Origin: a virus
Taxonomy: Duplodnaviria; Caudoviricetes
DNA: 41,747 bases
Virus record (IMG/VR): IMGVR_UViG_3300001866_000188
Span: 1 to 41,747 of that record
Direction: 5' to 3' (one strand)
Shown in pieces: positions 22,987 to 26,897 of this stretch. Position 1 is the stretch's first letter. The number at the start of each line of letters is the position of its first letter. Made by a program: the position numbers and the translations under genes. The notes under the pieces were generated by a model. The model saw only the letters and a program-made list of their open reading frames with translations, was not told where the DNA came from and searched no databases.

Positions 22987-23625
22987 TTACCTTCCGGCCA
23001 TTTTCCGGATAAAGTCGTTCATTCCACTGGTTGCGTTGTTCTTGGTCCCTCCTCCACCTGCCGGGTTGCTGCCGCTGCCAACTTTGTTATTGTCGGGTTG
23101 CCCCTTTAGATAGGGCTTGTCTTTTAGAAGAGCCTCCAGGGCTTCCTTTGCGCCTTCCACGTCACCAGAATCATTCACTTTGACCTTGCCCTTGTCCATC
23201 AAGGCCAAGGCTGCATCGGAGTCAATAATTCCTAGCTGAGCAGATATCACTTTGACCTCGGCTTTGATCAGTCTCTGATTGGCTTTTTCCTCGGCCTCCT
23301 GGGCCTTCTTGTTGGCATCTGCCAACTGCTGTTCATAGTTTTTGTTCGGGTCGGGCTCCAGGCCCAATGCTTTGAGTACCTTGGCCATTGTTTCCTGGGA
23401 TGCACCAGCAAGCTTCTGTTCCAGGTCTTTGACTTTGGTTCTATGACCAGCGGCCTCATCACGGAGCTTTTTGACATAGGCTTCATCATAGGTTTTTTGG
23501 GGGTCTCCTCCGCCCTGGCCTCCACCGTCTCCGCCTTCTCCTCCAGTTCCGGCACCACCGTTACCGGCTCCGCCATCACTGTCCATCATGGGTTGTCTAA
23601 ACCCCATCCACCATTTGAGCATCAA
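22987..23625 (-). CDS. Capsid scaffolding protein
   Basis: Gly-rich N-terminus, YVKKLRDEAA..R coiled coil, L..KPYL; precedes the major capsid gene. Confidence 0.85.
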   Translation of the reverse strand: MMLKWWMGFRQPMMDSDGGAGNGGAGTGGEGGDGGGQGGGDPQKTYDEAYVKKLRDEAAGHRTKVKDLEQKLAGASQETMAKVLKALGLEPDPNKNYEQQLADANKKAQEAEEKANQRLIKAEVKVISAQLGIIDSDAALALMDKGKVKVNDSGDVEGAKEALEALLKDKPYLKGQPDNNKVGSGSNPAGGGGTKNNATSGMNDFIRKMAGR

Positions 23626-23951
23626 GCTCCCTCCTCCTTCTCTGGCTCCTGGCCAACGTTAAATAAATTTGGATTATCTAAGATAACCTGAAGAAAGCCG
23701 GTTGCTAAAGCATCGACCGTCTTCTCGGTGTTATCCTCCCTCAGATCGATGTAATGCTCCCTCACAATCGCATGTACTATCTCATGCGCCAACGTCTGCA
23801 GTTTTTTCATTGGCGCCCGGTCTTTCAATATTTCAATTTTCAAATCATCATAAACAACTACTCCATCGCATTCCCGTCCGTTTAACACGATTGGGCCATC
23901 GACTTCAGATATCGTATACGTAAAAATCCCTACTTTAACCTTATCTTTCAT
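23622..23951 (-). CDS. Small HExxH zincin-like (ImmA/IrrE-like) protein
   Basis: TLAHEIVHAI..E..V..LA.G; AAGGAGG SD before ATG 23951. Confidence 0.72.
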   Translation of the reverse strand: MKDKVKVGIFTYTISEVDGPIVLNGRECDGVVVYDDLKIEILKDRAPMKKLQTLAHEIVHAIVREHYIDLREDNTEKTVDALATGFLQVILDNPNLFNVGQEPEKEEGA

Positions 23952-23977
23952 GCTGACCTCCTTATGTTTTTTTGGTA

Positions 23978-24021
23978 TAAAAAAACACCCTGGTAAGCTA
24001 AAATACTTACCAGAGGTGTTT
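23978..24021 (-). terminator. Long hairpin / rho-independent terminator
   Basis: Minus strand AAACACCTCTGGTAAG..CTTACCAGGGTGTTT plus T-run. Confidence 0.65.
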
Positions 24022-24023
24022 AT

Positions 24024-24371
24024 ATGGACAAACCTATTATTGATCCTGAGTGGACTATTGAGAATGATCGCCAATCTGTGACGGTCGGAATAAATACCCG
24101 CCTGTGGATTCTTCGCCAGGAAAACAAAACTCCCACCCTGATCCGCTTGGGGAAAGAACATTCCCGTCTATTTTGGAAACAGCGTGGCGTTGACTACATC
24201 CCTAACAAGCCAATCAAATTGATATCGGGTGACGTCTTCTGGGATGAAGAACGCCGCTGCTGGTGCTACTCCAAACGGATGATTCCTATGCGCTTTAATG
24301 ACCATCAAATTATTGGTATTGCTGCAGAGGGGATACCTAAGCCGGAAAAGGGCAAAAAGAAAAGCACCTGA
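24024..24371 (+). CDS. Hypothetical protein on the opposite strand (moron-like)
   Basis: 115-aa ORF filling the gap between two hairpins; GAGGTG SD. Confidence 0.55.
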   Translation: MDKPIIDPEWTIENDRQSVTVGINTRLWILRQENKTPTLIRLGKEHSRLFWKQRGVDYIPNKPIKLISGDVFWDEERRCWCYSKRMIPMRFNDHQIIGIAAEGIPKPEKGKKKST

Positions 24372-24399: not shown

Positions 24400-24678
24400 T
24401 CAGCTGTTTATCGCCCTTAAGTAAGCCTTTCGAACCTCATTTTTTTGGTCGGTTGTTAGTTTGTAATCATATTGCTCCAGTTCCTCAGGTTTAAACGCAT
24501 CAATATCCATAATCTCAAAGGCAACAACTTTTTCAGTTCCCTTATCTAGCATTTGCATGTCGGCAAAGACTTCATCCGGGCCGTCCTCTCCCACTCCAAC
24601 GCATTGTTCATAATCTTCAAAGACAATGAGTAGCGACCGGCCTGTTTTATCAATATTCACTAATCCTTTTTGGACCAT
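24400..24678 (-). CDS. Putative immunity protein (DUF2283-like)
   Basis: Small, acidic, VVAFEIMD motif; overlaps the 3' end of the MuF toxin gene. Confidence 0.65.
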   Translation of the reverse strand: MVQKGLVNIDKTGRSLLIVFEDYEQCVGVGEDGPDEVFADMQMLDKGTEKVVAFEIMDIDAFKPEELEQYDYKLTTDQKNEVRKAYLRAINS

Positions 24679-26897
24679 AATAAATCACTCTTTCGGATTT
24701 TGCTTCTCGGGTATAAAGCTTTAACGAAGTTTACCGGATGCTGGGGCTGTAATCTTAGCACCATCACGACATATTTGCCTGCTGAATATTCTTGTATAGG
24801 CTTATCAAGTTCATCGTTAAAAGCAATAACCCTAACAGTATCATTACGCTTATTGCGTTGGACAAATGCAGCATTTCTCATAATATCATTAACAATATCC
24901 GGAATATCGCCGCTAAGTTCAGGATGTCCTACAGAAATATGTTCCTGTGTATCCTGACTAAGGGTTAATGCTGCATCCTTTATCCCATATGCTTCTTTAA
25001 GTACATTATACACTTCTGGCTGCATTGTGCTAATCTCTTTGAATTGCCTTTTTACTGCTTGATCAAATGAACTGTTCTCCTGCCCATTTGTCTCTCCATC
25101 GTTTTGCCCGTTCTCTAAATCGATATACAACCCATATGCATGCTTACAATTATGGGTTATAATAGAATTACAAGCATACCAACCATCTGTAGTTTGGAGG
25201 TTGTAAACATGCCCCGAAAAACTCCTCAACTGAACGCCAATGATCTCATCAGGCGTTATACTGCCGGAGAGTCCCTCTATCAACTCGCTACCGCTTTGCA
25301 TGTCGGTAAAGCTTCTATTAAAACCATCTTGGAGCAAAACGGAATTGAGATTAGGAATCTCCAAGAAGCTCGCATCAATCGCAGGATACCACTCGACAAC
25401 TCCGACATCCACCGACGATACTCGGCAGGGGAAACCAAGAAGGCTATCGCTAAAAGTCTTGGCGTGAATCAAGCCACGATTCAACGCCGTCTTAAAGATT
25501 TTGGTATTGATACCGCTCCGGATAGGTCTGTTGCAATGAGCACGCGTCTTTCCAGAATGACCGCCGAAGAACGGCAAGCGTTGACTGAAGCTGCTCATGA
25601 CGCTGTTCGCGGCACAAAACAGCCTCTTGAATATAAGATACACCATGCTCAATGCATCCAGGCCCGCGGCAAATTTGGCAGTGCTGCTGAACAAATCCTT
25701 ACTGGTTGGCTTATGGAAAGAGGCATTAATGTTATTCCCCAACAAGCCATCGGCATATATAACGCAGACATCGGAGCCTTTCCCATCGCCGTGGAAGTCT
25801 TCGGGGGAAACTGGCACGCTAATGGCAGACATGCCCTTAGACTGCCCGAAAGAACGCACCACATCCTCAATTCTGGATGGAATTTGGTCTTTGTGTGGGT
25901 CAGTGCCTTGTATCATCCCCTGCTCCCCCAATTGACGGATGACATAGTCGCCTTCTACGAGTTGTCCCGCCGCGACCCATCCTTTAGGGGTCAATATCGG
26001 GTGGTTTGGGGTGACGGGCAATTCTATTCCGCTGGCAGTGTGCAAGATGATGAGTTCACCATCATACCATCTGGAAAAAACCGCCAATGGCGGAGGCCCA
26101 CTGACTAAAACGCCAGCTGGAAAACACCGGGGATGGAAGAGCCCGGCATCCTTAGCCTCTTGCAGCGTCGGATAGCCTTCCGTCTTGCCCGACAAGGATA
26201 ATATTTTCCCCTCCCACGGTCGACACTTTTCGCATGCCCCTATATGAGTGCTGACCTTCACCAGATCGTGCCCGTGTTCTAAAAGTCGGTTAGCAGTACC
26301 CTGTAGATGGGCCTCCATAGTCGTAGTTCTAGCCACCGTTTCTGCATATGTCCGCATGTTCCATTGTCTGCCCTTACGGTCCTTAAACCCTGTTATCCCC
26401 TGTTCGGCCAACTGCTCTCGGAAGTTTTTCGCCACCTGCTGCCAGCTTTTATAACCAACCACCGAACCCTTAATATTTTCCAAAGCCAGGGTTCGGTAGA
26501 TATCATCGACCCGGCGGCCTATGGTCGTAGCCACATCATCAAACCGATTATAGGCGGTCTCGGCCAGCACCTGGGCAGCCTGTTGGTGGATGGCTGCAAA
26601 ACCAACCTTGACCTCAGTGCCCATGGCTTTCATCTGAACATCAGCAGCCTTGGCGCCTTCCGTGTAAACCCGGGGAATAGCTTCTTCGCACCAAGTACGA
26701 GATCCCTCCCGCAAGTCCTTCAGGATAGCCTGAACATTGGTTTTCATAGCGTTTAGATATTCAGTCTTGTTTTCCCTGAGCAGAGCTTGGTTAATATCAT
26801 TCAGGATCTCGCGCTCAGCGTCAGTATAAAATTGTATCAACCGCCGAGCTTCGTCCTCACTGAAACGTATGAGCTTTTCATCGGGAGACTTTGCCAT
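24660..26897 (-). CDS. MuF-type minor capsid protein with intein and C-terminal BECR-like nuclease toxin
   Basis: G..W.M.TYAE...RT, C..C.PWEGK, YPTL.EA...GLFHPR|C.H; C-terminal EHI..GHPE..NFVKALYP..LLW. Confidence 0.85.
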   Translation of the reverse strand: MAKSPDEKLIRFSEDEARRLIQFYTDAEREILNDINQALLRENKTEYLNAMKTNVQAILKDLREGSRTWCEEAIPRVYTEGAKAADVQMKAMGTEVKVGFAAIHQQAAQVLAETAYNRFDDVATTIGRRVDDIYRTLALENIKGSVVGYKSWQQVAKNFREQLAEQGITGFKDRKGRQWNMRTYAETVARTTTMEAHLQGTANRLLEHGHDLVKVSTHIGACEKCRPWEGKILSLSGKTEGYPTLQEAKDAGLFHPRCFPAGVLVSGPPPLAVFSRWYDGELIILHTASGIELPVTPNHPILTPKGWVAAGQLVEGDYVIRQLGEQGMIQGTDPHKDQIPSRIEDVVRSFGQSKGMSAISVPVSPEDFHGDGKGSDVCVIYADGLLGNNINASFHKPTSKDLFSSTAKFAAGLDALSMVYLIFKRLFCAANSVMSSFSQRLPFFGGHSGKTRAHCNRPIRSGINTKIFKTALNRGLIHAKTFSDSLLGFPCRVSSVDVGVVEWYPAIDASFLEIPNLNSVLLQDGFNRSFTDMQSGSELIEGLSGSITPDEIIGVQLRSFSGHVYNLQTTDGWYACNSIITHNCKHAYGLYIDLENGQNDGETNGQENSSFDQAVKRQFKEISTMQPEVYNVLKEAYGIKDAALTLSQDTQEHISVGHPELSGDIPDIVNDIMRNAAFVQRNKRNDTVRVIAFNDELDKPIQEYSAGKYVVMVLRLQPQHPVNFVKALYPRSKIRKSDLLWSKKD
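25158..25211 (+). promoter_or_regulatory. Putative -10 box (TATAAT 25158-25163), SD (GGAGGT 25196-25201) and ATG (25209) of the antisense endonuclease
   Basis: Consensus elements in sensible spacing; the -35 match is weak. Confidence 0.6.
25209..26108 (+). CDS. HTH-HTH plus Vsr/DUF559-like endonuclease encoded antisense inside the intein
   Basis: Two RRY.AGE....A..L.V....I...L...GI repeats; S.AE..L...L..RGI...Q..IG.Y.AD..IAVEVFGGNWH..R...I...GW.LV.VW; strong SD. Confidence 0.87.
   Translation: MPRKTPQLNANDLIRRYTAGESLYQLATALHVGKASIKTILEQNGIEIRNLQEARINRRIPLDNSDIHRRYSAGETKKAIAKSLGVNQATIQRRLKDFGIDTAPDRSVAMSTRLSRMTAEERQALTEAAHDAVRGTKQPLEYKIHHAQCIQARGKFGSAAEQILTGWLMERGINVIPQQAIGIYNADIGAFPIAVEVFGGNWHANGRHALRLPERTHHILNSGWNLVFVWVSALYHPLLPQLTDDIVAFYELSRRDPSFRGQYRVVWGDGQFYSAGSVQDDEFTIIPSGKNRQWRRPTD

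Follow-up and report, generated by a model that had tools for sequence, protein, structure and literature searches.

The window, which is the whole virus record of 41,747 bases, contains a capsid-gene intein whose opposite strand carries, in codon register, a gene for a protein with two HTH modules and a Vsr-type nuclease domain. This protein is likely the homing endonuclease of the intein, and the intein itself is likely to splice out of the capsid protein; we put the probability of this reading at about 0.85. The element was originally predicted to have one strand that splices and another that encodes a homing nuclease under expression signals of its own, and this much is supported by fold, conservation, selection, start signals and the existence of empty alleles. 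The claim that it belongs to no described class does not stand, because Gosselin, Arsenault and Gogarten (2025, bioRxiv 10.1101/2025.01.02.630785) report antisense VSR-like HEN inteins. Compared with the relevant passages of that preprint, one point is new: the nuclease active site is predicted to overlie a conserved segment of the intein.

The head module is encoded on the minus strand and includes a terminase, an SPP1-type portal, a 745-aa Phage_min_cap2 protein, and scaffold-like and major capsid genes. The 745-aa gene has the portal (PF05133) on one side and the scaffold/major capsid genes (PF05065) on the other. The features of this gene and its insert are:

24660..26897, minus strand: host gene, phage minor capsid precursor, 745 aa (Phage_min_cap2 PF06152, E 4.6e-35)
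26127..26897, minus strand: N-extein, 257 aa, ending in His-Pro-Arg
25149..26126, minus strand: intein, 326 aa, with class-1-type motifs (C1, T39/H42, block F, H325, N326, C+1)
25923..26126, minus strand: N-terminal splicing part, residues 1-68, dual-coded with nuclease residues 239-299
25752..25892, minus strand: segment 79-125, constrained in the intein frame and antisense to the nuclease core; contains I86-E87-D88, and F111-H112-G113-D114-G115 at 25782-25796
25272..25751, minus strand: residues 126-285, behaving as passive filler without stops, a shadow of the HTH modules and linker of the nuclease
25149..25271, minus strand: C-terminal splicing part, residues 286-326, with blocks F and G
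24660..25148, minus strand: C-extein, 162 aa, first residue Cys, with a variable tail (PBECR-like as a lead only)
25209..26108, plus strand: antisense gene, 299 aa, with two HTH modules (about 10-97), a helical linker and a Vsr-fold nuclease (about 156-277)
25158..25163, plus strand: candidate -10 box TATAAT, within the intein block-G codons
25196..25201, plus strand: Shine-Dalgarno sequence GGAGGT, 7 nt before the ATG

All of the motifs first recognised at 25149-26126 are present, namely C1, the block-B TxxH (T39, H42), block F, the penultimate H325, N326 and C+1, which makes this a class 1 intein by motif. Four of these residues (C1, T39, H42 and N326) are invariant among 138 aligned inteins. 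The intein model, made with 138 sequences, matches Hint domains (1at0 with Z 12.1, rmsd 1.9 and 107 aligned; 2imz with Z 12.0), and 22 chains reach Z >= 8 with Hint domains in the top rows. Within the model, residues 81-120 are confident (block pLDDT 93, 85, 80 and 73), and pLDDT is below 50 over residues 177-272. The intein corresponds to residues 258-583 of the precursor, and ORF coordinates and length arithmetic agree that 745 aa minus the 326-aa intein leaves the predicted product of 419 aa.

On the plus strand, the open reading frame spans 25140-26108, the conserved start is the ATG at 25209, and the stop codon lies antisense to codon 7 of the intein. Fold and profile matches confirm that 25209-26108 encodes a 299-aa Vsr-like protein with two HTH modules. 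The AlphaFold model (49 sequences) has a mean pLDDT of 89 and shows both modules. Residues 156-277 match Vsr (1cw0, Z 11.3, rmsd 2.2, 113 aligned), and the model matches I-Bth0305I (3r3p) with Z 9.3, the latter also being top-ranked by Foldseek (E 0.005). A phmmer search of the nuclease sequence against the PDB gave nothing significant, whereas profile and fold searches did match, and the HMM or structure search proposed for both translations has returned a Hint domain for one strand (Z 12.1) and a Vsr domain for the other (Z 11.3). The predicted key residues of the nuclease are E161, D187, E196 and H203. D187 and E196 are found in 165/165 sequences, E161 in 161 of 163, and H203 in 149 of 165. 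Two nuclease homologs from the protein search, P0047 and P0050, carry extra Pfam domains (PF07167/PF00561 and PF01653/PF22745, respectively), and fusions or assembly chimeras are suggested as alternatives.

A known related architecture is that of the EDxHD enzymes, i.e. HTH/NUMOD repeats together with a Vsr-type domain, and the window nuclease has it too. As described in parts of PMC3239194, I-Bth0305I has its repeats at the N-terminus and its Vsr-type domain at the C-terminus, like the window nuclease, and its E170, D196 and H213 correspond to E161, D187 and H203 when mapped by spacing and not by superposition. Its D222 has no conserved counterpart: the 165-sequence alignment contains no conserved Asp at nuclease positions 211-217, where the last Asp of the EDxHD motif would be expected, and the window family has the invariant E196 and R215 (163/165) instead. 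The EDxHD enzymes in the parts of PMC3239194 and PMC2677866 considered here are intron-encoded, or are encoded on the same strand between split-intein halves, whereas the window nuclease is antisense within an intein.

Selection was compared by frame in a set of 165 sequences with less than 90% identity, for which z-scores treat related sequences as independent. Over intein residues 126-285, a comparison of the window with five relatives gives pS of 0.72-0.85 and pN of 0.26-0.39 in the nuclease frame, and pN about equal to pS in the intein frame. Selection over this stretch favours the nuclease frame, and the dN/dS-type test proposed for each frame has found a synonymous excess in the nuclease frame, and not in the intein frame, over 160 codons. 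Over intein residues 8-68 both frames are constrained: the block-B His42 is invariant, and nuclease Y263 is kept in 156/165 sequences vs 38 expected from the intein residue. The roughly 230-aa middle of the intein is free of stops, as first noted, but it is not all filler. Residues 126-285 behave as filler in the alignments, and about 47 residues (79-125) are conserved in the intein frame and confidently modelled. If a column is called constrained when retention of the intein residue exceeds what is expected from the nuclease residue and codon usage, 16 of 47 columns are constrained in 79-125 vs 1 of 151 in 126-285 (0/55 in 126-180; 1/96 in 181-285). As an example, H112 is kept in 158/165 sequences vs 30 expected. 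In line with such constraint, the codon of E196 is GAA in 157/165 sequences, and that of E161 is GAA in 83/163. A conserved folded domain in the middle had been named as a finding that would speak against the original prediction; this applies in part, through the conserved residues 79-125, and it refines the reading without refuting it.

The codons of segment 79-125 are the reverse of nuclease residues 182-228, that is, of the catalytic core with D187, E196 and H203. The splicing unit around the segment is atypical. Downstream of block A, the family is missing some 25-30 residues of the canonical Hint domain, and TIGR01445 matches the window intein only at profile positions 50-83 of 83. The distance from C1 to the block-B His is 40-44 residues in 132/134 family N-termini vs 57-97 in 68 control inteins, and the canonical-length N-terminal region (about 60-95 residues from C1 to the block-B His) is thus absent here. 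In hhalign there is a 22-column gap at the missing Hint segment. Among 255 unique intein DNAs, the shortest five are 183-210 aa long and come from four lineages; all of their deletions fall within 127-300, FHGD or FHDD is kept in each, and the nuclease is crippled (E161 or His203 lost, or stops). A protein search for shorter intein forms returned one fragment only. The middle is only partly filler because segment 79-125 is constrained in the intein frame and the shortened inteins keep it; we infer that the segment serves the intein, and it likely belongs to the splicing unit.

It is also conceivable, though clearly the less probable option, that the segment is kept as a DNA or RNA signal or by nuclease constraint alone, outside the splicing domain. 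At V195 and E196 conservation at the DNA level is indistinguishable, because both frames fix all three bases. Furthermore, the hhalign match of the segment is weak (residues 78-95 fall on the missing Hint segment with a probability of 2-6% and E 0.006-0.02), and a pre-chosen covariation block test is not significant after realignment (rank 1709 of 10440), although an earlier version looked stronger. The individual covariation pairs 16-90 (z 5.3) and 5-87 (z 4.2) are seen in the intein frame only, with z ignoring kinship. Against a nucleic acid signal, the intein-silent base varies at D114 and G115 while the intein residue stays (HEN 193 GTC/ATC; HEN 192 CCC/TCC/GCC/ACC), and the FHGD/FHDD motif persists in three loci (L232, L233 and L440) whose nuclease is interrupted by stops or no longer has His203. 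In five further loci (L051, L081, L226, L285 and L325) some 45 additional residues are inserted precisely at the position of the missing canonical Hint segment, and FHGDG is still kept in the three of them that were inspected.

If the segment does belong to the splicing unit, the splicing and nuclease genes are likely interlocked. In the form that we consider slightly better than an even bet, the Hint domain has been rebuilt: the missing piece of 25-30 residues would be replaced, possibly by permutation, by the reverse of the nuclease active-site codons, so that splicing would need the DNA of the catalytic core, the interlock would extend over about 120 codons, and the decay route to a mini-intein would be broken. 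The permutation of Hint is unproven from the alignments. The splicing unit would then consist of residues 1 to about 126 together with about 286-326, and therefore the codons of the nuclease core could not be deleted without harm to splicing; the nuclease could nevertheless be inactivated, through stops or by losing the half that binds DNA. Such an arrangement would break the usual decay to a 135-aa mini-intein and would help to explain why one architecture is found across many phage lineages. It would also show how a selfish gene can render the DNA that encodes it indispensable, and would yield a new intein scaffold that is small, at about 165-185 aa. Neither the shortened Hint domain nor the FHGD motif is mentioned in the passages of bioRxiv 10.1101/2025.01.02.630785 considered here.

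The nuclease gene has its own start signals. Its ATG lies antisense to the codon of His306 in block F; a start codon is present there in 131/165 sequences, with an SD-like word upstream in 122/165 vs a background of 8%. The candidate -10 box TATAAT is exact in 47/165 and within one mismatch in 92/165, vs 0 and 2 in a control set of 13 inteins only. No good -35 element is found near TATAAT, where matches are poor both in the 165-sequence set and in the window, and the site is absent from the output of a promoter scan that reports only sites with a -35 match.

Taken together, the element would work as follows. Translation from the late operon would give the 745-aa precursor, which would be spliced by the class 1 route (C1, H42, N326, C+1) to the 419-aa protein, restoring the His-x-x-Cys motif of the host protein. 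A -10 box of the sigma70/sigmaA type, the Shine-Dalgarno sequence and the ATG, all within blocks G and F, would drive a convergent antisense transcript independently of the late operon. The nuclease would bind an empty allele, carried by a co-infecting phage or a prophage, through its HTH modules and would cut or nick it close to the junction; subsequent repair would copy the element into the empty allele.

Empty alleles do exist. All ten non-self relatives of the N-extein (10/10) are intein-free at this site, with identities of 70% for L238 and 60% for L237, which identifies the intein as an in-frame insertion. In a tree of the exteins (47 rows with E under 1e-10, out of 147 compared), alleles with the intein are interspersed with empty ones. 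In the four closest filled relatives the identity in the nuclease frame is 59-64% vs 59-69% for the exteins, and no recent jump is seen in the window lineage because nuclease identity tracks extein identity; the patchy occurrence could reflect loss. In one locus (L028) a nuclease identity of 51% stands vs an extein identity of 25%, figures that suggest an older transfer.

The element has many relatives. A protein search with the nuclease gave 51 homologs, and tblastn against annotated phages gave 121 records, which include phages of Salmonella, Klebsiella, Vibrio, Pseudomonas, Escherichia and Edwardsiella. Sequence scans supplied the best 80 viral, 80 metagenome and 50 genome loci of 557, 414 and 51 confirmed stretches, and about 800 viral and 1200 metagenome stretches are estimated to fit the search patterns. 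The nearest filled relatives of the window phage include a Firmicutes MAG. In total 236 loci were collected (with duplicates and the window), of which 178 are unique. Both intein ends are found in 176/178 unique loci and Cys1 in 173/178, and the nuclease frame is open from the start region through the core in 171/176. Since most of these loci had been selected by nuclease similarity, a second set of 80 loci was chosen with only residues 1-68 of the intein as the criterion. Five of these were incomplete and six were duplicates; in this set an antisense homolog is present in 69/69 unique complete inteins and has full length in 66. The proposed check in homologous inteins thus finds the antisense ORF and its catalytic-type residues conserved, with 0 stops in 236/236 loci and with D187 and E196 in 165/165 sequences. 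In all 23 phage records examined, the gene annotated across from the match is a head, minor-capsid or hypothetical one; the antisense ORF itself is annotated in only one of these records (PK1). The class thus appears far commoner than the actinophage survey suggests, with its nuclease gene almost never annotated. In two cyanobacterial genomes (L223 and L233) a second intein seems to end shortly upstream, at a Cys-x-x-Cys of the same head protein.

These relatives also bear on the improbable alternative that the nuclease is selected for another job, such as degradation of competing phage or host DNA, repair or regulation, with the intein as a passive vehicle. Vsr/DUF559-type folds do serve in repair and restriction as well, and no recent transfer is seen within the window's own clade. 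Most VSR-like cases looked vertical or were singletons according to the parts of bioRxiv 10.1101/2025.01.02.630785 considered here. On the other hand, the register is the same in 236/236 loci, and 176/178 unique loci are within inteins that interrupt different head proteins at an equivalent position, nearly always a His-x-x-Cys motif across PF06152, PF04233 and PF25310 hosts. HTH modules with a Vsr domain are the architecture of the homing endonuclease I-Bth0305I, and the identities in L028 also speak for homing.

The intein and nuclease frames are, as first noted, aligned codon to codon on opposite strands, in exact register. The codons TTA, CTA and TCA, whose reverse complements are stops, do not occur in either of the two frames, vs 8.1 and 10.8 expected from the codon usage of the window phage (P about 1e-4 and 6e-6). 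For comparison, 12 other genes of the window and both exteins have 4-44 stops in their antisense frames of the same register. Across the region of the nuclease match, none of the 236 loci has a stop in the antisense frame that is in register, while stops occur in both remaining antisense frames of every locus. The alternative that the antisense ORF is no gene but an overlap artefact, shadowing the intein frame, is refuted computationally: ordinary genes of the window do hold in-register antisense ORFs of up to 279 codons, but they leave unexplained the confidently modelled Vsr and HTH folds, the invariant catalytic-type residues, the frame-specific selection and the conserved start signals. 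The antisense gene in its intein is then a natural case of two proteins, both with predicted folds, that are selected on opposite strands.

A literature search on this architecture gave bioRxiv 10.1101/2025.01.02.630785 as its only match, and the parts of PMC11855218, PMC10914365 and bioRxiv 2023.04.10.536325 considered here contain nothing on this element. According to the sections of the preprint that were available, 63 of 784 inteins have non-canonical HENs, including anti-sense VSR-like ones, and the minor-capsid inteins of actinobacteriophages are exclusively non-canonical. The VSR-like model of Gosselin et al. matched 1CW0 (Z 10.6) and 3R3P, and these sections describe no activity test. 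Like those inteins, the window element is contiguous, is hosted by a minor-capsid gene and has its Vsr-fold ORF as a separate gene on the other strand. It differs in that its host is a PF06152 minor capsid protein and in that its family extends beyond actinophages. Homologous actinophage minor-capsid inteins with the antisense ORF are found by tblastn in the Gordonia phages Malisha, Vivi2, Fosterous, Affeca and Angelicage (32-37% match), the antisense ORF of Vivi2 having 33% identity to the window nuclease. The Gordonia phages Angelicage (L005) and Sedona (L017) have MuF inteins with an antisense ORF homologous to the Vsr-like nuclease, and both are named in the endonuclease VII paragraph of the same preprint; there may be a second intein elsewhere, or clusters may be mixed in the preprint text.

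In a similar example, which the available sections of the preprint credit to Gorbalenya 1998, inteins carry an anti-sense LAGLIDADG gene. The MuF inteins of the Gordonia phages Sitar and Nordenberg are like the window's in having an antisense nuclease gene in the same register. They differ in the nuclease, in the canonical length of the Hint N-terminus (TIGR01445 matches the Sitar intein at 3-83) and in being without the FHGD motif. The codon register of these two LAGLIDADG genes (L327 and L328) is that of the Vsr-like genes, which suggests that antisense nucleases in inteins favour this register.

Some observations concern the surroundings of the element. The tail of the C-extein (24660-25148, minus strand) resembles PBECR2/PBECR3 nuclease-fold clusters by language-model features (0.92), a Pfam search of the C-extein gave no match, and the tail differs between the relatives L002, L237 and L238. 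It is followed by a 92-aa ORF (24400-24678, minus strand), and as a lead only, the two may possibly be a polymorphic toxin/immunity pair of the MuF type. Within the minus-strand head module there is a small plus-strand gene (24024-24371) with terminator-like hairpins on its flanks; it is without Pfam match and has a counterpart at the same place in L002 (358-780, plus strand). Finally, an ORF at 23622-24161 on the minus strand, also without Pfam match, contains an HExxH motif and may encode a small metallopeptidase similar to ImmA/IrrE.
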